Shown: positions 2,676 to 52,028 of the stretch, in pieces | How the letters are laid out: each line of letters opens with the position of its first letter | Numbering within the stretch: position 1 is the stretch's first letter | DNA from: an uncultured Gammaproteobacteria bacterium | Lineage (GTDB): Bacteria; Patescibacteriota; Patescibacteriia; UBA9934 | Length of the DNA: 61,139 nt | Assembly (NCBI GenBank): GCA_964599455.1 | Contig: CAZREA010000001.1 | Span: forward strand, 419,829-480,967 | Reading direction: 5' to 3' | The notes under the pieces: model-generated | What the model was told of the DNA's origin: nothing | Databases searched by the model: none | Seen by the model: the letters and a program-made list of their open reading frames with translations, nothing else | Program-made: the position numbers and the translations under genes

Positions 2676-2849
2676 ATGAACAATTTGTCGAAATTCACGC
2701 CCCATAGCCTAACACGTCATGCACTTCCCGACAAGACAGTATTTCCTTCATTTGCCCTTTTATTATTGATCTGATAAAGTACTGTGCATTCAGTAGCTGT
2801 TTCATCTCTGGCGATGCAACCCGAGCAAGGGAGAAAGCGCCGAGCGAAG

Positions 2850-2973
2850 ATTTGCCACTAAGTTTGTCAGATGCTAGGAGTCGACGAGCACCGGCCGAGG
2901 CGTACTGCCTAAAGTACGGTGAGGCCGGAGCGCAAGTCGACGACAACGCAGCTGGCAAACTTGGGTGGCAAAT
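2850..2973. repeat. 124-bp rod-like imperfect palindrome (MITE-like) abutting tRNA-fMet
   Basis: The arms ATTTGCCACTAAGTTTGTCAG and CTGGCAAACTTGGGTGGCAAAT are inverted copies. The GC-rich interior has nested GTCGAC..GTCGAC and CCGGCC..GGCCGG pairings. Confidence 0.6.
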
Positions 2974-2979
2974 CTGTAT

Positions 2980-3056
2980 CGCAGGGTGGAGCAGCCAGGC
3001 AGCTCGCCGGGCTCATAACCCGGAGGTCGCAGGTTCAAATCCTGCCCCTGCAACCA
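2980..3056 (+). tRNA. Initiator tRNA-fMet (CAT), CCA encoded
   Basis: CGCAGGGTGGAGCAGCCAGGCAGCTCGCCGGGCTCATAACCCGGAGGTCGCAGGTTCAAATCCTGCCCCTGCAACCA. Has the C1:A72 mismatch and three G-C pairs closing the anticodon loop. Confidence 0.93.
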
Positions 3057-18359: not shown

Positions 18360-18698
18360 TTATGAACCGATTTCTTCAACCGTCTTTTTCACACGAAGCA
18401 CACGCACCTTTTTTCCTTCTTTTACGGCATATCCCACCCGACCGATTCCTTTCTTGCCAACCAATACCACATTGGCAGCAGGTAAAGGAGCCTGAAAGGT
18501 CACCTTCTGTCCTTTTTGGTCGCCACGAGCCTTGAGGTGTTTCGTTCGGGTGCGAACGCCTTCAACAACGACCATGCGGTTATGAGGAAGAACCTGCGTA
18601 ACCTTTCCTTCTTTTCCACGATCGCCTCCCTGTTCTTTGGAGCGGCCGACCATGATACGCACCAGGTCGCCGACTTTAATTTTCATCTTAATTTGCAT
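18360..18698 (-). CDS. rplX: 50S ribosomal protein L24
   Basis: [16 protein letters not shown] motif. An alternative ATG lies at 18686. Confidence 0.93.
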
Positions 18699-23843: not shown

Positions 23844-24133
23844 ATTTTCCACGTTCATGCGTTACACGCAGCGGAACGAACAAGAATAAAGGATAAATAA
23901 AAAGCAAGAAGTCATCTGCATACGTGCAAGACGGCTTCCAGCCCACAAAAAAGCAACTCTGAAGAACAATCCTTCTGAAAGATGTTCATGTTGTTTTAAG
24001 GAGATGGAGCAAAGCTTTTCATTTCAAGGAATTCCGTGCAAAGCGCGGCAAGGTTTTCCCTCGAAGCTCCGACGTAAGGAGGAGCGAAGTGGGATCTTTC
24101 TTTCCGGTTTGTCATAGGAACCGCAGTACGGAA

Positions 24134-24171
24134 CTGCCATGGAAAGACAATGTTTTCTCTTTCCATGGCAG
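24134..24171 (-). other. Perfect 13-bp stem-loop inside the rpsJ-rplC spacer
   Basis: ctgccatggaaag-12 nt-ctttccatggcag, about 35 nt downstream of the rpsJ stop. No U-tract follows. Confidence 0.7.
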
Positions 24172-24204
24172 ACCCGATCCTGTGAAGGATCTGATCTGCG
24201 AACA

Positions 24205-26384: not shown

Positions 26385-26455
26385 AAAACGCTTTTCTGTA
26401 TGGTACTCACCGGGTAAGGAATTGAAAACAGACCCTGTGGGTCTGTTTTCAAAAA

Positions 26456-26935
26456 TTAACTTGCAATATCTTGATCAAGAACTTCCCAAGACAAAATTTC
26501 TTGCACTATTTGATCAAAAGAGAAAGCTGGGTATTGCTTCCAGACTCCAATAACCGCATCCCCTACCTGTTCAGGAGAAGTCCGAGCATCAAGGCCAAGT
26601 TTTGGACGAAGCATTATCACTTCAGCTCGCGATAATTCACGGGAAGGAATAAAGCTCACCTCGTGTACCTCAGGAGATGGGGAAGGTTCATTTCTTCCTG
26701 GAGATGGTCGAGATAATACTTCGGCTACAAAGGCCCCAAAGGAAGGCACATCTGGTCGTGTAATATATTCGTCTGTTAATGCACGATAAGTTTCATCAGA
26801 GGTCGCATTATCAGGCAATCCCATCTTTATACCTAACATGCGCAGTTGATCAGCAGGAATTTCAGGGACAAATCCCCTACTTACTTCAATGTCTCCTCCC
26901 CTTGATGCTGATCCTATATTATCTATACCGCTCAT
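26456..26935 (-). CDS. Hypothetical protein (160 aa)
   Basis: Start set at ATG 26935 (MSGIDNIG...). The upstream part of the ORF overlaps the fusA 3' end and its terminator. An AT-rich TATAAT-containing region lies at 26936-27000. Confidence 0.5.
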   Translation of the reverse strand: MSGIDNIGSASRGGDIEVSRGFVPEIPADQLRMLGIKMGLPDNATSDETYRALTDEYITRPDVPSFGAFVAEVLSRPSPGRNEPSPSPEVHEVSFIPSRELSRAEVIMLRPKLGLDARTSPEQVGDAVIGVWKQYPAFSFDQIVQEILSWEVLDQDIAS

Positions 26936-32336: not shown

Positions 32337-32422
32337 AATAGGGATATAGTAGCAAGAAGAAGGCCAGTGAGGCCAGCTTTCAGAAAGTAACGTGATTTCC
32401 AAGGAAAGTCCGTAAAAAGATT

Positions 32423-32454
32423 CACCCGCCGACTAGATCGCTAGTCGGCGGGTG
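32423..32454 (-). terminator. 14-bp perfect hairpin terminator (minus-strand sense)
   Basis: cacccgccgactag-atcg-ctagtcggcgggtg, followed on the minus strand by aaucuuuuu. Confidence 0.6.
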
Positions 32455-32478
32455 AAGAACGGAGAGTGGGTCGACGAA

Positions 32479-32667
32479 CTAGTTGTTGTCGACCCTGTTC
32501 TCCAAGGCGCGGAGGTCTCTCCGCGAAAGGTGCGAGGGCGTCAGGACAGGTATCCCAACACAAGAGCTCGGAGCCAACGAGGAGGGGGTCTCTCTGACCT
32601 CATCAGGAAAGGCGGGATCGGCGGGCGACGAGAGGAGGGGCGGTTCCGGAGGGGGAGACTTGGTCAT
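32479..32667 (-). CDS. Candidate small ORF (62 aa, Pro/Ser-rich) in GC-rich island
   Basis: GGAG 7 nt upstream of the ATG. G/C preferred at third codon positions. Terminator 32423-32454 lies downstream. Low-complexity sequence, so it may be non-coding. Confidence 0.3.
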   Translation of the reverse strand: MTKSPPPEPPLLSSPADPAFPDEVRETPSSLAPSSCVGIPVLTPSHLSRRDLRALENRVDNN

Positions 32668-32771: not shown

Positions 32772-32810
32772 AACCTCCTCCCGGCCTCCTCCTTGAAAAG
32801 GAGGAGGTGA
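32772..32810. repeat. Palindromic element family P1, copy A, flanked by perfect 11-bp direct repeats
   Basis: aacctcctcccgg-CCTCCTCCTTGAAAAGGAGGAGG-tga lies between cgcctacgtgc (32761-71) and cgcctacgtgc (32811-21). Confidence 0.8.
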
Positions 32811-32837
32811 CGCCTACGTGCCTTCGTGCCAAGGTAC

Positions 32838-32872
32838 GAAAGAACCGCCCAATGACCGAGGCGGTTCTTTGT
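32838..32872 (+). terminator. Plus-strand terminator-like hairpin
   Basis: aaagaaccgcc-caatgaccga-ggcggttcttt followed by gtt. Confidence 0.45.
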
Positions 32873-33077
32873 TACATTCGCATTGAGGATGAGCTCTTTA
32901 GCTATGCATGAGATACCGCCACATTTTTTACAAGAAACACGACATCGAGAGAGGACGTCGTAAAAATCTTGCAAATAGTGCGGTACGGTGATTGCATATC
33001 GTCTTTTTTAGAATAACGCACAAAAAGCTGATAATTGAAAAGTTATCCCCATCTCTTCCTACTGTCAAGAACATCTC

Positions 33078-36796: not shown

Positions 36797-36818
36797 GGGG
36801 TCGGGCATGCCCGACCCC
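36797..36818. repeat. P3 perfect palindrome GGGGTCGGGCATGCCCGACCCC touching the leuS stop codon
   Basis: 22-bp perfect palindrome. Confidence 0.8.
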
Positions 36819-39800
36819 TACAGCACAAAATTCACAATTTTTCCTTTTACCACGATCGTCTTTTTTGGCTCGTTCGTCAGGTGCTTGGCAACGTTTTCGT
36901 TTTGTTTAGCAATGGCGACAATCTGTTCATCAGTAGCGTCGGCAGGAACAGTGATGTTCCCACGTAATTTACCGTTTACTTGAACCGCAATCGTCATCTC
37001 GTCATCAGTTAGGAATGCAGAATCAAATTGCGGCCAAGGCTGTTCTTCAACAAATCCTTTTTCGCCAATCTTCTCCCAAAGTTCGTTCGCAACATGCGGA
37101 GCAAAAGGAACGAGCATCATCAATATAAGCTTAAAAGATTCTTTGGTAATCACCTTTTGTTCGTAGACATCGTTCACCAATGTCATCAAGGCTGCAACAG
37201 CCGTATTAAAACGATATCCTTCAATATCTTTGGTGATTTTTTCGAGCGTTTTGTACACTTTCTTTTTTAATGACGCATCTTCGCTGTCAGAAACAAACTC
37301 TGCCATACGCACGACGCGATCCAAAAAACGACGTACGCCAATCACGCCATTCATCGACCATGGTACTGGCTCCTCAAACGGTCCCATGAAAAGCTCATAC
37401 ACACGTAGCGTATCTGCTCCGTACGCTTGCACAATGTCATCGGGATTGACGACATTACCTTTTGATTTGCTCATCTTGGTTCCGTCTTCTGCGAGAATTA
37501 ATCCATGAGCAATACGCTTCTGACAAAATTCGGAAAATGGCACATGTCCGCGATCGAACAACACTTTTGTCCAGAAGCGTGCATACAATAAGTGACGCGT
37601 GGCATGCTCCATCCCACCGTTGTACACATCAACTGGCAACCAGTGTTTAAGCTTATCTTTGCTGGCAAACGCCTGATCATTATGCGGATCGGCGTAGCGC
37701 AAAAAATACCAACTCGACCCTGCCCAATTCGGCATCGTATCGGTTTCGCGTGTGGCTTTGCCCCCACACTGCGGACAAGACGTGTTCATCCAATCAGGAA
37801 TCAACGACAACGGTGACTCGCCCGTATCGGTTGGTTCGTATTTTTCAACCTGCGGCAACGTTACCGGCAAATCTGTTTCCGGCACCGGTACCCAACCATC
37901 ATGTTCCGATGCACATCCATTTTCACAATGCACGAGCGGAATCGGCTCACCCCAATAACGCTGTCGCGAAAATACCCAATCACGCAAACGATAGGTCACT
38001 TTCTTGCGTCCACTTCCCTGCTCTTCGAGCCAAGTAGTAATTTTTTGGATCGCATCATCAGAGGTAAGTTCGGAGAATTGATCTGAGTTCGTAAGGATGC
38101 CTTTTTCAGGCGTACATTGATCGTCTCGACCAATACGTCGCCACACTTCTTTCATGTCGTCAGCAGTAATAAAGCTCATCACTTCATCACGCGAGATCCA
38201 AACAAGATCAGCAAGTGCTTTTTCATCGTCGGCAATCTCTTGGTGAGTATCGTCAGCAAGTTCAAATAACATGCCAGAGAATTCTGCCCAACGATTTTGT
38301 TTTTTTACCATGTGATAAAACTGGGAATGGATAGAATCCCCAAGTTTACGAACCAAACGCATGTTTTGATAACCTGTTTCCTCTTTAATTTCGCGCATCG
38401 CAGCTTCAATCGGCTCTTCCCCATCTTCAATACCGCCAATCACAAATCCCTGCCACGTATTCGCTTTATACTTCACGCACAAGTATTTCTCTTCATTCCA
38501 ATGTTTAATAACACACACTGCAGCTTTTCGTTTTACAAAAGGAGCATCAGGTCGAAGAGCATCATCACCGCTTGATCGAACGAATAATGATTGCACGACC
38601 GAACGAATTGATAAGTGATATTTCTTCGCAAACGCCCAATCACGTTCATCATGCGCCGGCACGGCCATCACCGCACCTGTTCCATACGAACCGACAACAT
38701 AGTCCGCCACCCAAATCGGAACCTTTTCGCCATTTGCCGGATTCACGGCATACGCACCCGTAAAGACCCCGGTTTTTTCACGACTGAGGTCACCACGCTC
38801 TTCATCGGTTTTATTTTTCGTAGTAGCAACATATGCATCAACCTCAGCGCGCTGTGCGTCGGTCGTGATTCGCGAGACCAAGGGATGTTCCGGAGCAAGA
38901 ACAACATACGTAACACCGAAAACGGTATCAGGACGAGTGGTAAAAACGGTAATAATCGGATTTGTCAGCTTAAAATGATAAATATAAACGAGATCATCGT
39001 CGGTAATTTCACGCTTGTAGTACGTAGAATAAATCTTACGTCGCTCCTCAAGCGTCTGCGCATCATGCTCATGGCCCGGAAAATCAAGAGGAACATCCTT
39101 CAACGAACGCTCTTCAATCTGCGTCACTTGCGCCATAGCAAAAACTTGCTGCGCTTCCCAATTAATCAACTTCACAATATCGCCTTCTTTGATATTCTTC
39201 TCCATTCTAAAAGTCACTGTTTTGTTACCAGACATGATCTCATCACAAAGCCAAGGACGGAATTTGAAATATTCGATCGGTCGAGCAGCCGTTTCTCCAA
39301 TCACAAAATCAATCTCCGCACCTTCACTTCTTCCAATCCATTCTTCCTGCTCTTTTTTAATTTTCGGCAAATAGTCGACGCCTTTGAGATCTTCTAACAG
39401 ACGATCGGCATATTTTGTCATCGCAATCATCCACTGTTCTTTTTCGCGCTTCTCAACTGGTGTTCCGCAGCGTTCACACACACCACCAGCTGCTTCTTCA
39501 TTTGCCAAACCAATCTTATCCTTCGGACACCAATTGATCGGCATCTTCGCCTTATAACAAAGTCCATGCTTAAAAAATTCCAAAAACATCCATTGCGTCC
39601 ATTTGTAATACGCGGGATCAGTTGTATCAACTTCGCGGGACCAATCAAAACTAAAGCCGATGGATTGTAATTGTCGGCGAAACGTTTCGATGTTTTGTTT
39701 GGTCACGATTGACGGATGAATGCCGGTTTTGATGGCATAATTTTCAGCAGGCAATCCAAACGCATCCCAACCCATGGGAAAAAGGACATTCATTCCTTCC

Positions 39801-40000
39801 ATGCGACGCTTACGCGCTATGACATCAAGTGCGGTGTAACTCCGCGGATGACCGACGTGCAAACCAGCTCCTGATGGATAGGGAAACTCGACAAGAACAT
39901 AATATTTTTCTCGCAAATCGTTTTCTTTTGCATAAAAGATGGCACTTTCATGCCACTTTTTTTGCCACTTGGGATCAAAAAACCGATGATCGTACGACAT
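36818..40000 (-). CDS. leuS: Leucyl-tRNA synthetase with two extra inserted domains (ASCH-like and Nudix)
   Basis: HIGH (HVGH) and KMSKS present. CP1 editing motifs TTRPDT and AVPAHDERD present. 1060 aa, roughly 200 aa longer than typical bacterial LeuRS. Confidence 0.95.
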   Translation of the reverse strand: MSYDHRFFDPKWQKKWHESAIFYAKENDLREKYYVLVEFPYPSGAGLHVGHPRSYTALDVIARKRRMEGMNVLFPMGWDAFGLPAENYAIKTGIHPSIVTKQNIETFRRQLQSIGFSFDWSREVDTTDPAYYKWTQWMFLEFFKHGLCYKAKMPINWCPKDKIGLANEEAAGGVCERCGTPVEKREKEQWMIAMTKYADRLLEDLKGVDYLPKIKKEQEEWIGRSEGAEIDFVIGETAARPIEYFKFRPWLCDEIMSGNKTVTFRMEKNIKEGDIVKLINWEAQQVFAMAQVTQIEERSLKDVPLDFPGHEHDAQTLEERRKIYSTYYKREITDDDLVYIYHFKLTNPIITVFTTRPDTVFGVTYVVLAPEHPLVSRITTDAQRAEVDAYVATTKNKTDEERGDLSREKTGVFTGAYAVNPANGEKVPIWVADYVVGSYGTGAVMAVPAHDERDWAFAKKYHLSIRSVVQSLFVRSSGDDALRPDAPFVKRKAAVCVIKHWNEEKYLCVKYKANTWQGFVIGGIEDGEEPIEAAMREIKEETGYQNMRLVRKLGDSIHSQFYHMVKKQNRWAEFSGMLFELADDTHQEIADDEKALADLVWISRDEVMSFITADDMKEVWRRIGRDDQCTPEKGILTNSDQFSELTSDDAIQKITTWLEEQGSGRKKVTYRLRDWVFSRQRYWGEPIPLVHCENGCASEHDGWVPVPETDLPVTLPQVEKYEPTDTGESPLSLIPDWMNTSCPQCGGKATRETDTMPNWAGSSWYFLRYADPHNDQAFASKDKLKHWLPVDVYNGGMEHATRHLLYARFWTKVLFDRGHVPFSEFCQKRIAHGLILAEDGTKMSKSKGNVVNPDDIVQAYGADTLRVYELFMGPFEEPVPWSMNGVIGVRRFLDRVVRMAEFVSDSEDASLKKKVYKTLEKITKDIEGYRFNTAVAALMTLVNDVYEQKVITKESFKLILMMLVPFAPHVANELWEKIGEKGFVEEQPWPQFDSAFLTDDEMTIAVQVNGKLRGNITVPADATDEQIVAIAKQNENVAKHLTNEPKKTIVVKGKIVNFVL

Positions 40001-46498: not shown

Positions 46499-47062
46499 AT
46501 GATCGCGATTCTGGCTATTCTGTCCCTTGCCGCCCACGCCGAACCCCTCAGCGGACAGCTCATGCTGACCGCAACCGGGCAGAGCGAGCTGTCCGAGAAG
46601 GTCGACCTGGACGCTTTCGTCTCGTTGTTCTGGGAACGCTCGGCCGAGACCGAGCTCGCATTCGCCTACGTCGGCATGCCGATCGCAATCACCGATCGCC
46701 TCACGATCGGACCCTACACCGGCGCGGTCCTGAACTGGACCGGGCAGGGCGACATCGCGCCGCTGGCGTCGATCTGGACGTCGTTCGACGCGACCAAGAA
46801 GCTGCACCTGTTCGCGGAAGGAGACCTCTACTTCTTCCCCACGGGACGGCCGGTATACTTTGGTGCCTACAGCGCGGACTACGACCTGATCAGCGACGTG
46901 CTCTCGGCCGGACTCGTCACCGAGCACGTGGACACCGGCTTCAACTCCGGCGGACGCCTGAAGATCGAGTTCGGCGAGACACTGAGCCTGACGGGCACCT
47001 ACCTGAAGAAGATCCGTGCCGAAGGACAGGCCATCCGCATCACGGTGGGCGCCAAGTTCTGA
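46499..47062 (+). CDS. Secreted beta-barrel-like protein in GC-rich island
   Basis: GGAGG 5 nt upstream of the ATG. Signal peptide MIAILAILSLAAHA|EP. Alternating hydrophobic pattern, and C-terminus AIRITVGAKF resembles an OMP beta-signal ending in Phe. High GC3. Confidence 0.6.
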   Translation: MIAILAILSLAAHAEPLSGQLMLTATGQSELSEKVDLDAFVSLFWERSAETELAFAYVGMPIAITDRLTIGPYTGAVLNWTGQGDIAPLASIWTSFDATKKLHLFAEGDLYFFPTGRPVYFGAYSADYDLISDVLSAGLVTEHVDTGFNSGGRLKIEFGETLSLTGTYLKKIRAEGQAIRITVGAKF

Positions 47063-47351: not shown

Positions 47352-48608
47352 ATGGACCTCTTCGACACCAAACCTCCATCCCTCGTACACACTCCCCTTG
47401 CCGAACGCATGCGACCAAAAACACTCGAGGAATACGAAGGTCAACAAGGTGTGATTGGGCAAGGAAGATATTTGCGTACGCTATTACAAAAAGGCGACAT
47501 TCCTTCACTCATTTTTTGGGGACCGCCGGGCGTTGGCAAAACAACACTTGCTCGCATCATCACCAACCACGTCAAGGCACGTTTTGTACCGTTCAGTGCG
47601 ACAAGCGGCAGCATCGCAGATATTCGTCTCGTCTTGAAAGATGCCGAGGAACGACGAAAATTTTATAACGAACGCACGATTCTTTTTATTGATGAAATTC
47701 ATCGCTTTAATAAGAGTCAGCAAGACGCCTTTTTACCCTCAGTAGAAAGCGGCATTGTGACGTTGATCGGCGCGACAACCGAAAATCCGTCGTTCGAAGT
47801 CAATGCCGCACTCTTATCTCGCTGCCGCGTGATCGTCCTTGAGCAATTGTCACTAGAAGCAGTTGTTTCCATTTTACAACGAGCGTTATCAGATGAAGAA
47901 CACGGGCTCGGAAAACTCAAATTAAAACTTTCAGATGACGCGATACGTTTCATTGCACAAGTGTCGAATGGCGATGCACGAAGCGCCCTCAACATGCTCG
48001 AGCTGGTCGCAAAAACGATCGAGTCCGAAAACGCCACCAAAAAATCAATCACACTCGACAAAGTCTCGACGATCATCGAAAAAAATACGCTCCTGTACGA
48101 CAAAACCGGCGAAGAGCATTACAACATTATCTCTGCACTCCATAAATCGATGCGCGGGAATGATGCCGATGCCGCGCTCTATTGGCTTGGCCGTATGCTC
48201 GAAGCCGGTGAGGATCCGCTCTATATCGCTCGTCGTCTTGTTCGATTTGCCAGCGAAGATATTGGTCTCGCGGACCCACATGCACTTGTGCAAGCCGTTG
48301 CCGCGCATCAAGCCGCACACATGATTGGTATGCCGGAATGTAATGTCATTCTTGCGCAATGCGTCGCCTACATGGCTAACGCACCAAAATCAAATGCACT
48401 TTATGTGGCGTATCATCAAGTAAAAGAGGACATCCGTAATCTCCCAAACGCGCCGGTGCCTCTTCATTTACGAAACGCGCCAACAAAACTCATAAAAGAG
48501 CTCAATTATGGCAAAGGTTACAGATACACGCCGGACTTTACGAATGTCGAGGATGCCAAACAGGATTATTTGCCAGAAAAATTAAAAGGCAGGAAATATT
48601 TTGAGTGA
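47352..48608 (+). CDS. rarA: Replication-associated recombination protein A (AAA+ ATPase RarA/MgsA)
   Basis: GPPGVGKTTLA, LFIDEIHRFNKSQQD, and C-terminal MgsA domain (YDKTGEEHYNIISALHKSMRG). Confidence 0.93.
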   Translation: MDLFDTKPPSLVHTPLAERMRPKTLEEYEGQQGVIGQGRYLRTLLQKGDIPSLIFWGPPGVGKTTLARIITNHVKARFVPFSATSGSIADIRLVLKDAEERRKFYNERTILFIDEIHRFNKSQQDAFLPSVESGIVTLIGATTENPSFEVNAALLSRCRVIVLEQLSLEAVVSILQRALSDEEHGLGKLKLKLSDDAIRFIAQVSNGDARSALNMLELVAKTIESENATKKSITLDKVSTIIEKNTLLYDKTGEEHYNIISALHKSMRGNDADAALYWLGRMLEAGEDPLYIARRLVRFASEDIGLADPHALVQAVAAHQAAHMIGMPECNVILAQCVAYMANAPKSNALYVAYHQVKEDIRNLPNAPVPLHLRNAPTKLIKELNYGKGYRYTPDFTNVEDAKQDYLPEKLKGRKYFE

Positions 48609-48628
48609 AAAATTGCTCACATTTTTTC

Positions 48629-48656
48629 TTGACACAAAAAAGACTTGTACTAAGGT
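48629..48656 (+). promoter_or_regulatory. Putative promoter of the tmRNA-like gene
   Basis: TTGACA-16 nt-TAAGGT, about 14 nt upstream of the GGGG 5' end. Confidence 0.4.
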
Positions 48657-48669
48657 AAAGATATCTGGC

Positions 48670-48837
48670 GGGGTCTCCATGACCTTTTCCGAGATGACCA
48701 AAGTAACTCCCCAATTTGGCGGAGTTATTTTTGTTAACACGCCGAGTTGAGCCAAGAATGGGGCCGTGAGGTCAATCGGTTAACCCGTCAGGTTTGTCAT
48801 CTCGAAAATGTCGGTTCGAATCCGGTCGGCTCCACCA
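48670..48837 (+). ncRNA. tmRNA-like RNA (possible minimal ssrA): tRNA-like domain, P2, one pseudoknot and a short tag frame
   Basis: The acceptor GGGGUC/GGCUCC has G3:U and the 3' end is ACCA. The T-arm carries a GGUUCGAAUCC loop. A 9-bp helix 48690-98/48796-804 takes the P2 position. A pseudoknot spans 48703-45. The frame GCC..UAA lies at 48751-83. Only 168 nt. Confidence 0.5.
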
Positions 48838-48863
48838 TTGTTCTTTGGTAAAACTCGGCACCA

Positions 48864-48888
48864 AAAACCCCGCATCACGCGGGGTTTT
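48864..48888. terminator. Bidirectional terminator between the tmRNA-like gene and the LOG gene
   Basis: aaaaccccgc-atcac-gcggggtttt. Confidence 0.75.
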
Positions 48889-48891
48889 CAA

Positions 48892-49440
48892 TTACTTATT
48901 TACTTCTTTCAACCGAGCAATTGCTGTTTGGATATCGGGAATAAATTCAATCAGATCCAAAGGACTACTATAGGATAATCCATTTTCGACAATACTTTCT
49001 AAGACTCGTCGCAACGGCTCATAGCCATCACCAACACAAAGAAGCAGTTTCTGTTTATCTATCTCGCCCAAAGCTTTTCGACAAAGAACTTCGAGAATTT
49101 CATAATGCGTACCAATGCCTCCAGGAAGCGCAACATAGGCATCTCCTAGTCCAATGAGACGCTGCTGGCGCGGAGATAAAGGAGAAAAATCCTCGATATG
49201 CGTATATGCATCATGTTCGAGTGGAGAATCTTTTTTATTTAGGGTAATGCAATGTACTGTACCTCCCGCCGCATGCATGCTTTTACAAATTTCGGTCATC
49301 ATTCCCAAATTTCCGCCGTTCACGCAGGTAAAACCTTCTTTGGCTAACAAAACGCCAAAATCTCGCGCTATTTGCAAATATTTCTCTGCATGTTCACCAC
49401 TTGGTGACGAGGCGCAAAAAACCGTCACATTCTTAATCAT
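48892..49440 (-). CDS. LOG family protein (TIGR00730, cytokinin riboside 5'-monophosphate phosphoribohydrolase-like)
   Basis: GGNLGMMT and PGGIGTHYEILE motifs. Confidence 0.82.
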   Translation of the reverse strand: MIKNVTVFCASSPSGEHAEKYLQIARDFGVLLAKEGFTCVNGGNLGMMTEICKSMHAAGGTVHCITLNKKDSPLEHDAYTHIEDFSPLSPRQQRLIGLGDAYVALPGGIGTHYEILEVLCRKALGEIDKQKLLLCVGDGYEPLRRVLESIVENGLSYSSPLDLIEFIPDIQTAIARLKEVNK

Positions 49441-50762: not shown

Positions 50763-52028
50763 CTAACGAAAGAAGCTGTCTAGTGCAGGATACCAATGTT
50801 TTGCCGATAATTGCATCAACTTTTCTTGAAACGAAGTGTTATCAAACAATTCTCCAATTTTACGTAAAATATCATCATCACATTCTGCCTGTTCATCTTT
50901 ACTCACGCCGCGTTCTCTGCGGTCAAGCGCAAGCGCATGAACTTCACCAAAAAATGCTGGGTAATCGGCAGCTTGAAGGATTTCTGCTCGTTGTCCACGA
51001 AGAGTTTCCGTAATAAATGCACGAACACGAAGATCAGTAAAAGCTCCAGGACGAACGGTGCGCGTTTTCCATTGATGCCAGTAAATTCCTTTGCTCTGTA
51101 CTTCTCCAAAAAGTCTATCAAGCGCCTCTCCTGCAAAACCTAATTCAATACATCGTTGACGAGTATCTTTCACTGTTTCGGCATCAAGATGTTGAAGGCT
51201 AAAAAGTTCAGGAGCGACCACACCCATCCCTACCAATACATACTCACCAACACTATTGAGAAAAGCGTGTTCGAAAGACTCGGGCGTTGATCGCGAAGTT
51301 AATTTATGAACATTCGTCAGCAAACGCTTCTGAATACGGTCTGCTAATAGGGGAAAGAAACTTTCCAAGACACTCAGCTCACGCAAAAATTCAAGAGGGG
51401 TGCGCAAAGACTGAGGATCCCTTTCAGTCAAAAAACTGCGAGTAAAGGTAGCAAGATTATTCACGGGCTCTTGTAACTGTTCAGCAATAGCCTGTGCTCT
51501 TCGAAGACGTTGTAATTCTTGAAGGAAGCCCGTCATAACGACATCCGGTTTCGCCCGCAAAACTTCTTCATGCTGATCAATATCGATCTGTACTTCCTTT
51601 GGTCTTACCAATGCCTTTTGCACCTCAACAAATGAAGCACGTCGCTCCTTTTCTTCATCTCCTTCAAGAAATATCCCATCTTGTGCATCGTAGTAATAAC
51701 GAAGTGAAAAAATCTGTAAACGCCTTGCATTTGGCACCGCTAAATCAGCGGCTCGATCCACGATTCTTTCAAGAAAATTTGGCAGCTGCTGAAGAGTAGC
51801 AGCGTAAATAGTACGACGTTGTTCAGGAGCCGCCGCTACTACTCGCTCTAAAAAAGCAGGAAATACTTCACGTGGACTGTCTTGACCTTCTCGAAAATGC
51901 TCGCGCAAGCTCAAGGCAAGTCTCTGCAAAAGCGCCTGACGCTGTTCAACTCGCTGATCTAAAAGTTCTTCTTGAGATAGTCTTTGTTCTTCTCGAAGCT
52001 CTAAACGCATCCCTCCCATAAAAATCAT
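50763..52028 (-). CDS. Hypothetical protein (421 aa), helical, Gln/Leu/Arg-rich N-terminus
   Basis: Long uninterrupted ORF with native-looking composition. No recognisable catalytic motif. Confidence 0.6.
   Translation of the reverse strand: MIFMGGMRLELREEQRLSQEELLDQRVEQRQALLQRLALSLREHFREGQDSPREVFPAFLERVVAAAPEQRRTIYAATLQQLPNFLERIVDRAADLAVPNARRLQIFSLRYYYDAQDGIFLEGDEEKERRASFVEVQKALVRPKEVQIDIDQHEEVLRAKPDVVMTGFLQELQRLRRAQAIAEQLQEPVNNLATFTRSFLTERDPQSLRTPLEFLRELSVLESFFPLLADRIQKRLLTNVHKLTSRSTPESFEHAFLNSVGEYVLVGMGVVAPELFSLQHLDAETVKDTRQRCIELGFAGEALDRLFGEVQSKGIYWHQWKTRTVRPGAFTDLRVRAFITETLRGQRAEILQAADYPAFFGEVHALALDRRERGVSKDEQAECDDDILRKIGELFDNTSFQEKLMQLSAKHWYPALDSFFR

Follow-up and report, generated by a model that had tools for sequence, protein, structure and literature searches.

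One-piece transfer-messenger RNA (tmRNA, SsrA; RF00023) is about 350 nt in length, and the A located four nucleotides before its resume codon was found to be nearly invariant among 555 tmRNAs (PMC2481249). In E. coli tmRNA, the resume codon lies 12 nt past pseudoknot 1 (PK1) and the activity was abolished by both A86U and A86C, A86U being without measurable activity (PMC2481249). The commonest length of the tag is 10 residues (PMC11915505), and conservation of the tag end ALAA is high, Mycoplasma having AFA (PMC3985003). In vitro, tmRNA can do without PK2-PK4, and the forms from plastids, mitochondria and phages are reduced or lack the tag (PMC3985003, PMC11915505). Among them, tmRNAs without a coding sequence (CDS) were described from jakobid mitochondria, Mallomonadaceae plastids (about 65 bp) and mycobacteriophage DS6A, and the DS6A form is an inhibitor of host tmRNA (PMC11915505, PMC3985003). 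A tRNA-like module also occurs in YrlA-type Y RNAs, and in M. smegmatis YrlA the acceptor stem has 7 bp, and the RNA is cleaved by RNase P and has CCA added (PMC4201824). Here, a 168-nt RNA element of a Patescibacteria genome, located between rarA and the LOG gene at positions 48670-48837 of a 61-kb window (the whole stretch of 61,139 nt that was analysed, contig CAZREA010000001.1), was compared with these systems. From its letters alone (hereafter the sequence-only reading), it had been taken for a possible naturally minimised tmRNA or, as the other option, for a tRNA-like RNA of another function with alternative folds.

The second option was retained, and the first was not supported by the tmRNA models, the tag, the base at -4 or the conservation in relatives. 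The locus is a discrete element, with a G+C content of about 50% compared with 28% in the flank, built around a degenerate tRNA and holding two strong, mutually exclusive complementarities, which compete with each other in the computed folds. Its architecture is non-random, conservation is absent among the relatives, and the features that define tmRNA membership were largely missing. The favoured explanation is a functional or semi-functional tRNA mimic, i.e. a lineage-specific tRNA-derived RNA gene and not a tmRNA, for which we consider the chances to be evenly balanced.

The core of the element is a tRNA-like module of 78 nt. Under gathering thresholds, the only Rfam family at the locus was tRNA (RF00005), which matched 48760-48834 with 32.5 bits versus a gathering score of 29; the real tRNAs of the window scored 59-75 bits. 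Four tRNAs were called in the window by ARAGORN at default settings, none of them at the RNA locus, and the relaxed run (-ps) gave tRNA-Thr(UGU) of 78 nt at 48760-48837. ARAGORN with introns allowed added nothing new, and an intron-containing tRNA was dropped for this reason. The acceptor GGGGCCG/CGGCUCC of the module forms 7/7 pairs with G3:U70, and is followed by A73 and an encoded CCA. The D stem has 3 pairs, with GG in the D loop, and is separated from the acceptor by 3 nt (one nucleotide extra). The anticodon stem is weak, with a C-C mismatch and two G-U pairs, and the anticodon loop UUUGUCA contains the anticodon UGU and U33, with C37 instead of a purine. The T arm has 5 pairs, two of which are G-U, and the loop UUCGAAU. 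Acceptor and T stems (12/12 pairs), T loop, A73 and CCA are intact, and the changes are concentrated in the D arm, the anticodon arm and the variable loop.

The 78 nt could be aligned over their full length with tRNA-Ala genes. The pattern of the 3' 26-mer retrieved ordinary tRNA-Ala(UGC) genes, of jumbo phages only, and the similarity by BLAST to phage and plasmid records was limited to the T arm and acceptor of tRNAs, apart from a tRNA-Asp of a phage, which was matched over the full length though not significantly. These alignments indicate that the module is descended from a tRNA with an alanine-type acceptor. The claim was limited to this because the D arm is closer to Glu-, Asp- or Met-type tRNAs than to Ala; a tRNA-Ala ancestry of the entire cloverleaf is not claimed. 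With tRNA-Ala genes and tRNA pseudogenes (RF00005), the module shares the acceptor stem, the discriminator, the T arm, the encoded CCA, the GG of the D loop and a score above the gathering threshold. It differs from tRNA-Ala in the UGU loop with C37, the mismatched anticodon stem, the extra nucleotide ahead of the D stem and the nearer-to-Glu/Asp/Met D arm, and also in that the cloverleaf is not its stable fold, that strong complementary leader and trailer flanks are present and that an antisense segment and a second acceptor strand lie upstream. All four bona fide tRNA genes of the window (4/4) encode CCA, so that an encoded CCA is normal for tRNA-type genes here rather than a hallmark of tmRNA. 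A mixed-identity decoding tRNA, in which the 78-nt cloverleaf would receive Ala via G3:U70 and read ACA (Thr) with UGU to give deliberate or tolerated Thr-to-Ala mistranslation, would agree with the relaxed tRNA-Thr(UGU) call on a G3:U70 acceptor, the Rfam tRNA score above the cut-off and the presence of U33. However, C37 in place of the usual purine, the C-C mismatch and two G-U pairs of the anticodon stem, the 3 nt between acceptor and D stems, a cloverleaf that is 15 kcal/mol worse than another fold, and the sequestration of the anticodon region by the long-range helix P2 in the 168-nt form make such a tRNA the least probable of the explanations, and very improbable in itself.

The elements listed by the sequence-only reading were all present at, or at most 1 base from, the places given for them. 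Directly readable were GGGGTC at 48670-75, which can pair with GGCTCC at 48828-33 to give a G3:U pair (6 pairs, with a U-C mismatch at 7:66), ACCA at 48834-37, and the T arm with the stem GTCGG/CCGGT and the loop TTCGAAT at 48815-21. The 9-bp long-range helix, CGAGATGAC (48690-98) with GTCATCTCG (48796-804), was confirmed as perfect (9/9 pairs) and is extendable to 16 pairs (48681-98 with 48796-812), after which it invades the T stem; its 5' strand (48681-98) is antisense to the anticodon loop, the variable region and the 5' side of the T stem of the module. Acceptor and P2 geometry were evaluated on 200,000 shuffles of the RNA body, by which P = 0.023 was obtained for a terminal acceptor-pairing 6-mer within the first 10 nt and P = 5e-4 for a nine-pair Watson-Crick helix in the P2 geometry of tmRNA. 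The P2 duplex had an energy of -17.7 kcal/mol versus -4.0 +/- 2.2 in shuffles, with 0/2000 equally stable. The H-type pseudoknot described in the sequence-only reading was sustained in its first stem, GTAACTCC (48703-10) with GGAGTTAT (48721-28), a part of hairpin H1. Its second stem, formed by the H1 loop strand TTGGC (48716-20) with GCCGA (48741-45), has 5 pairs including one G-U and is at chance level; the loop is paired otherwise in the minimum free energy (MFE) folds, and the folding tools used do not predict pseudoknots. The 10-codon frame exists (GCC..TAA, 48751-83) and is not beyond chance; the 3' strand of P2 starts 12 nt past the TAA and not directly after it, as had been stated. With pseudoknot stem 2 and the frame excepted, the noted arrangement was confirmed to exceed chance.

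A second strong complementarity, absent from the sequence-only reading, joins a leader strand (48741-59) and a trailer strand (48834-59) in blocks of 8 + 5 + 3 + 1 pairs and lengthens the internal acceptor stem. Its duplex energy was -19.5 kcal/mol versus -7.4 +/- 2.7 in shuffles, none of which was equally stable (0/2000); the P values of the two strong helices overstate their significance, as the helices were chosen after inspection. For 48663-48862, the MFE was -76.8 kcal/mol with z = -4.71, and 0/200 dinucleotide shuffles were as stable. In a second run z = -4.5 was obtained, which belongs to the extreme few percent when set against 104 background windows from this genome (200 nt each, 400-nt step, about the first 41.6 kb; mean z -0.5, sd 1.6). 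The shorter interval 48738-48862 gave z = -3.81.

The choice between the two folds was found to be set by the 3' end. The internal GGGGCCG had been noted as a possible alternative partner of the 3' end; it exists and can pair so, at 48760-66 rather than 48761-67, and two competing folds were computed from it. In the 229-nt transcript, fold B (internal acceptor) had -93.4 kcal/mol versus -78.9 kcal/mol for fold A (tmRNA-like), the probability of the internal acceptor was 0.92, and those of P2 and the terminal acceptor were 0. In the 168-nt RNA trimmed at CCA, the MFE was -56 kcal/mol (z = -2.04) with terminal acceptor and P2 in use, and pair probabilities were 0.85-0.90 and about 0.99, respectively. 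Here fold A (-56 kcal/mol) was ahead of fold B (-52.1 kcal/mol), also with the T arm enforced (-50.8 versus -45.3), forcing of the internal acceptor cost 4-5.5 kcal/mol, and the T stem was disrupted by the extended P2. Thus the calculations suggest that the internal acceptor is favoured in the unprocessed transcript because of the leader/trailer stem, and that the tmRNA-like fold becomes competitive only once the trailer has been lost. P2 crosses the leader/trailer stem; the two would be either alternatives or parts of one pseudoknotted fold. Outside fold A, 48670-75 was found in a 5' hairpin with 48681-86, and the P2 5' strand can alternatively pair with 48733-41, extending H1. The better-supported structure, as far as modelled, would consist of a 5' hairpin, H1 with its U run, and a long stem that carries the tRNA-like module as its cap.

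For the tRNA mimic, the following course may be proposed. Transcription would start near 48663 from a sigma-70-like promoter and end near 48890 at a shared bidirectional terminator. The core would keep exactly what RNase P, the 3'-end machinery and alanyl-tRNA synthetase (AlaRS) read, namely the 7-bp acceptor with G3:U70, A73, CCA, the 5-bp T stem and the consensus T loop, with the D and anticodon arms eroded. In the full transcript, leader and trailer would clamp the internal acceptor atop a stem of ~24 bp (fold B). Once the trailer was trimmed to CCA, 48681-98 would pair with the anticodon/variable region (P2), and then the second GGGGUC at 48670-75 would take the 3' acceptor strand; in the resulting fold A, the upper half of a tRNA would stand on a long helix, as drawn in the sequence-only reading. 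Maturation would yield a tRNA mimic of 78 nt or 168 nt, as set by the RNase P cut site and 3' trimming, that accepts alanine and has no usable anticodon arm; it could be charged by AlaRS via G3:U70, and normal decoding would not be possible.

For the comparison with relatives, homologues of RarA were used. The best species representatives in GTDB were Patescibacteria with 57-64% identity, and none of the GTDB relatives found by RarA (<=64% identity) carried the RNA. RarA relatives at 82% and 71-73% were obtained from a larger protein collection, with none between 82% and 100%. The gene order LeuRS (leucyl-tRNA synthetase) - rhodanese - RsmB - RarA ... TrxB - Trx - IF2 - TruB is conserved, and between rarA and trxB every relative has a different content. 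In L092, rarA is followed directly by trxB with a 78-nt gap; unrelated small open reading frames (ORFs) occupy the interval in L084, L085, L093/94 and L095/96, and a convergent repeat protein in L083. LOG lies between trxB and rarA in L097, L098/99 and L100 (49-60% identity), and is therefore not foreign to the interval. P1, P2 and the pseudoknot, for which an alignment of loci from relatives had been proposed, found no counterpart there, as the RNA was absent from nine syntenic loci (L083, L084, L085, L092, L093/94, L095/96, L097, L098/99 and L100; seven distinct relatives); the same loci were also without any tRNA or Rfam family. Scans of metagenome contigs with both acceptor strands, or with the terminal strand, T loop and 3' end, gave 0 matches, and so did scans of viral contigs with 5'-domain, P2-to-T-arm and terminal strand plus T-loop/3'-end patterns. 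As far as the searched collections show, the element would be an orphan. Orphan ORFs and a divergent GDH show the rarA-trxB interval to be a gene-turnover hotspot; this GDH is 46% identical to the L095 copy.

As a separate observation, a 298-nt intergenic region in a relative with LOG beside rarA (L098 7271-7567, also L099 3340-3636) is G+C-rich with many long hairpins. Its sequence is unrelated to the window RNA and had no Rfam match; possibly another structured RNA occupies this place. In the Parcubacteria relative L060, a tRNA-Ser(GGA) gene (1125-1211) was seen 12 nt past rarA on the same strand, so that the phylum offers a precedent for a tRNA gene downstream of rarA.

Several points weigh against the tRNA mimic. 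The RNA has no counterpart in the relatives at 71-82% RarA identity or in those with LOG beside rarA; no homologue was found in the collections searched, hence no helix has covariation support; and the three contigs of the source organism are 100% identical, leaving no polymorphism to read. The tRNA score is marginal and the module is rejected by default ARAGORN, and the two G-U pairs in the T stem are unlike the real tRNAs of the window. On the same 78 nt, the bare cloverleaf had -10.5 kcal/mol versus -25.7 kcal/mol for the MFE fold, a non-cloverleaf in which the acceptor stem alone is retained. Similar or stronger z was also obtained in other 200-nt windows of the genome, the post hoc choice of the helices has been mentioned above, and transcription, processing and charging are all inferred.

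From the same data a non-functional relic may be considered, that is, a decaying tRNA copy in the variable rarA-trxB interval, the complementarities of which would have come from template-switch/quasi-palindrome mutations or from chance, and in which the promoter-like site and the terminator would serve the neighbours. The orphan status, the absence from every syntenic locus within an interval of variable content, the sub-threshold tRNA detection (default and relaxed ARAGORN), the unstable cloverleaf, the two T-stem G-U pairs, C37 and the C-C mismatch would all be expected of such a relic; the terminator also ends LOG, and direct repeats are at chance level. Patescibacteria genomes, however, are compact and retain little dead DNA. 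Decay would also have to have left the 12/12 pairs of acceptor and T stems, T loop, A73 and CCA intact, with most changes held by the D and anticodon arms, and to accommodate two independent long complementarities, each beating 2000 shuffles, an overall z = -4.7, and the position of the sole exact promoter-pattern match in 61 kb exactly here. The relic was regarded as a serious but rather unlikely explanation, and the tRNA mimic was kept in the first place.

For the identification of tmRNA, ARAGORN and the Rfam models, proposed as a check by the sequence-only reading, were run on the window, and no tmRNA was obtained at the locus at any threshold. ARAGORN made no tmRNA call there at default, -ps, -ps80 or -ps70, although 16 tmRNA false positives over the window were produced by -ps80, none of them at the RNA locus. 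The tmRNA, alpha, beta, cyano, mitochondrial and permuted tmRNA models of Rfam gave no match at gathering score, and no tmRNA family was reported at E <= 10 in 48550-48950, where one lower-scoring match of the same clan was suppressed; the 5' domain alone, at permissive E-values, likewise gave no tmRNA family. No canonical ssrA was detected in the 61-kb window (ARAGORN, Rfam), and no smpB was detected in it (tblastn) or in any fetched relative locus. The 5' segment CCAUGACCUUUUC and the 3' linker AAAAU do not appear to match the tmRNA consensus sequences for SmpB binding (a D-loop-like 5' segment, ..UUCGAC, and a GGAC-type segment ahead of the T arm, respectively), and the missing covariance-model match agrees with this. 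Elsewhere in the window, a weak Rfam tmRNA_permuted match was seen at 2695-2859 (-), with 14.9 bits versus a gathering score of 47 and E = 0.4, and 2687-2703 (-), GGGGCGUGAAUUUCGAC, resembles a tmRNA 5' end. A real ssrA here was rejected as noise, since the candidate runs into tRNA-Met 2675-2599 and was called by ARAGORN only at a threshold that gives 15 other false positives.

The features of the element itself were compared with those of one-piece tmRNA. Shared are the alanine-type acceptor with G3:U70, A73 and CCA, the T arm with the consensus loop, a long irregular helix in the place of the anticodon stem, a short frame that comes after a hairpin or possible pseudoknot and has its stop in a hairpin loop, and an own promoter and terminator, which are predicted here. 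The marks of the tRNA-like domain (G3:U70, A73-CCA, 5-bp T stem, UUCGAAU) are equally those of tRNA-Ala; the long connecting helix P2 is present, but only in CCA-trimmed RNA. Unlike tmRNA, the window RNA is 168 nt without PK2-PK4 and is missed by tmRNA covariance models and ARAGORN; loss of PK2-PK4 alone is not disqualifying. The proposed tag frame GCC AAG AAU GGG GCC GUG AGG UCA AUC GGU UAA is identical with the leader, 5' acceptor strand and D arm of the cloverleaf, i.e. with a tRNA 5' half that pairs 7/7 with the same 3' acceptor strand, and the hairpin loop in which its UAA had been placed is the D loop. With the resume codon GCC at 48751, position -4 is U48747 and not A; with A48745 as the ruler, the frame would be GAG CCA AGA AUG GGG CCG UGA (EPRMGP), which is likewise not tag-like. 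The spacer from pseudoknot 1 to the resume codon is 5 nt, and the tag AKNGAVRSIG ends with RSIG, without the hydrophobic end of the ALAA type. The tmRNA-like fold is, moreover, disfavoured in the untrimmed transcript.

A minimal one-piece tmRNA would be cut by RNase P at G48670, end with CCA at 48837, be charged with alanine and support SmpB-assisted tagging from 48751-83, PK2-PK4 having been lost in a reduced genome. In its favour, terminal acceptor and P2 stand in tmRNA geometry, unlikely by chance, the corresponding fold is preferred by the CCA-trimmed 168-nt RNA, the predicted start lies 6-7 nt ahead of GGGG, and no canonical ssrA occurs within the window; a 10-residue tag is of the commonest length (PMC11915505), and the dispensability of PK2-PK4 in vitro and the strongly reduced organellar/phage forms are in keeping with it (PMC3985003, PMC11915505). 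Against it, no tmRNA model and no ARAGORN tmRNA call, even with -ps70/-ps80, supported the locus, the frame falls on the acceptor strand and D arm of a cloverleaf, U stands at -4 where A86U is inactive in E. coli (PMC2481249), the spacer past PK1 is 5 nt versus about 11-12 nt, and the tag end is RSIG and not ALAA or AFA (PMC3985003). In addition, the probability of terminal acceptor and P2 was 0 in the untrimmed transcript, the T stem is disrupted by the extended P2, and the RNA is not conserved in relatives. On this evidence a minimal tmRNA is highly unlikely. Equally slight are the chances that we would give to a newly evolved tmRNA analogue in transition from a tRNA-Ala-type gene, in which 3' trimming would refold the clamped pre-tRNA to an alanine-charged upper-half tRNA acting on stalled ribosomes as a minimal tagging RNA or, like phage DS6A, as a tag-less rescue RNA or decoy, in a lineage that may be without standard ssrA.

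The CDS-less tmRNAs offer a precedent for RNAs of tmRNA descent with a tRNA-like domain, few or no pseudoknots and no functional tag. They are homologous in sequence to the tmRNAs of their relatives, whereas the window RNA is not. Unlike them, the window RNA has a 90-nt 5' domain, a leader/trailer stem, and a recognisable D arm and anticodon-loop remnant, because of which it would descend from a tRNA. The commonest class of tmRNA false positives is tRNAs (PMC11915505). A tRNA-like module with T and D arms inside a larger RNA with a long stem is shared with YrlA-type Y RNA (PMC4201824). However, YrlA genes adjoin rsr (Ro60) and the window RNA adjoins rarA and LOG; the acceptor of YrlA forms a closed stem-loop, and YrlA ends in the Ro-binding stem on the anticodon side (PMC4201824), whereas the terminal stem of the window RNA extends the acceptor side. 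No GNCGAAN0-1G motif was seen by eye in the window RNA, and no Rfam Y RNA match was obtained at the locus.

Hairpin H1 with its U run looks like a terminator or attenuator, and its alignment to the terminator hairpin of an unrelated small RNA model was at noise level only. A cis-acting RNA may therefore be envisaged, in which the 5' domain with H1 and the U run would be the rarA terminator/3' untranslated region, or an attenuator gating read-through into the tRNA-like module, and leader and trailer would form a processing stem, e.g. for RNase III. H1 followed by UUUUU lies 92 nt past the rarA stop, the P2 5' strand can pair with 48733-41 or with the tRNA body, mutually exclusive pairings being typical of leaders, and the tRNA gene 12 nt past rarA in L060 would suit such an arrangement. 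But H1 is weak and AU-rich, the promoter-like site falls between rarA and H1, no ligand or partner could be named and no Rfam leader family was matched, by which the cis-acting RNA was judged improbable.

As to the expression signals expected of a tRNA mimic gene, the promoter-like TTGACA-16-TAAGGT noted upstream was present, and TTGACA-N16-TANNNT had its single match in the 61-kb window at the RNA locus. The site was not recovered by a stricter consensus promoter scan, and its -10 hexamer agrees at 3/6 positions only. The clean terminator noted downstream was likewise found, as a hairpin of 10 bp, all paired, and is common to the RNA and the convergent LOG gene (LOG ends at 48892). Two ORFs of 421 and 187 aa, at 50763-52028 (-) and 46499-47062 (+), flank the RNA locus; they (hyp421 and p187) matched no Pfam/NCBIfam family and had no homologue among the relative loci fetched. 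No integrase, recombinase or mobile-element protein was found near the locus, and no significant flanking direct repeats were found there (D1-D4 at chance level), so a genomic-island junction was rejected. The coordinates of the features are collected in Table 1.

Table 1. Features of the RNA locus (positions in the window).
Feature	Position	Strand	Details
Promoter-like site	48629-48656	+	TTGACA 48629-34, 16-nt spacer, TAAGGT 48651-56; start predicted at ~48663
Predicted primary transcript body	48663-48862	+	Modules: 5' hairpin, hairpin H1, long stem with tRNA-like cap
Upstream alternative 5' acceptor strand GGGGUC	48670-48675	+	Predicted to pair with 48828-33 only in the CCA-trimmed 168-nt form
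P2 5' strand, extended (GACCUUUUCCGAGAUGAC)	48681-48698	+	Duplex with 48796-812; inverted repeat I2, 16 nt at 88%
Hairpin H1 (AAAGUAACUCC / GGAGUUAUUU), then U run	48700-48732	+	Inverted repeat I1; in every predicted fold
Leader strand of leader/trailer stem	48741-48759	+	Lengthens internal acceptor stem; pairs with 48834-59
Degenerate tRNA-like module, 78 nt	48760-48837	+	Rfam RF00005, relaxed ARAGORN, alignment with tRNA-Ala genes
P2 3' strand (GUCAUCUCGAAAAUGUC)	48796-48812	+	Anticodon-loop 3' side, anticodon-stem 3' strand, variable loop, first T-stem bases
Trailer strand of leader/trailer stem	48834-48859	+	CCA 48835-37 within a 6-nt bulge in this fold
Bidirectional intrinsic terminator	48864-48888	.	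AAAACCCCGC-ATCAC-GCGGGGTTTT, perfect 10-nt inverted repeat I6

If the tRNA mimic is true, the locus would be a compact example of the re-use of a tRNA gene, in which the minihelix for RNase P and AlaRS is preserved and the remainder is rewired by two competing helices. It would represent the type of intermediate from which tmRNA and the tRNA-like domains of Y RNAs have been postulated to arise, and Patescibacteria would carry lineage-specific structured RNAs that are missed by standard annotation. If it is a relic, it would serve as a warning that a few complementary flanks can make an alanine-type tRNA resemble a miniature tmRNA so closely as to mislead. Either way, a 168-nt tmRNA should not be annotated before the transcript ends are known and the whole genome has been checked for ssrA and smpB.

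Other observations were made elsewhere in the window. Between two divergent tRNA genes, at 2848-2975 (+) and 5 nt ahead of tRNA-Met 2980-3056, the sequence forms a hairpin of ~125 nt that is nearly perfect, with an MFE of -79.4 kcal/mol and z = -9.4. No Rfam family matched it; a structured leader, a small RNA and a foldback/MITE-like (miniature inverted-repeat transposable element) element are conceivable. In the folding scan, z of -4 to -5.7 was recorded for 24001-24200, 32401-32600, 26401-26600, 32801-33000 and 18401-18600 (+). Leucyl-tRNA synthetase, encoded at 36818-40000 (-) with 1060 aa, contains ASCH and NUDIX domain matches inside, and the NUDIX insertion is found likewise in the relatives L084, L085 and L093.

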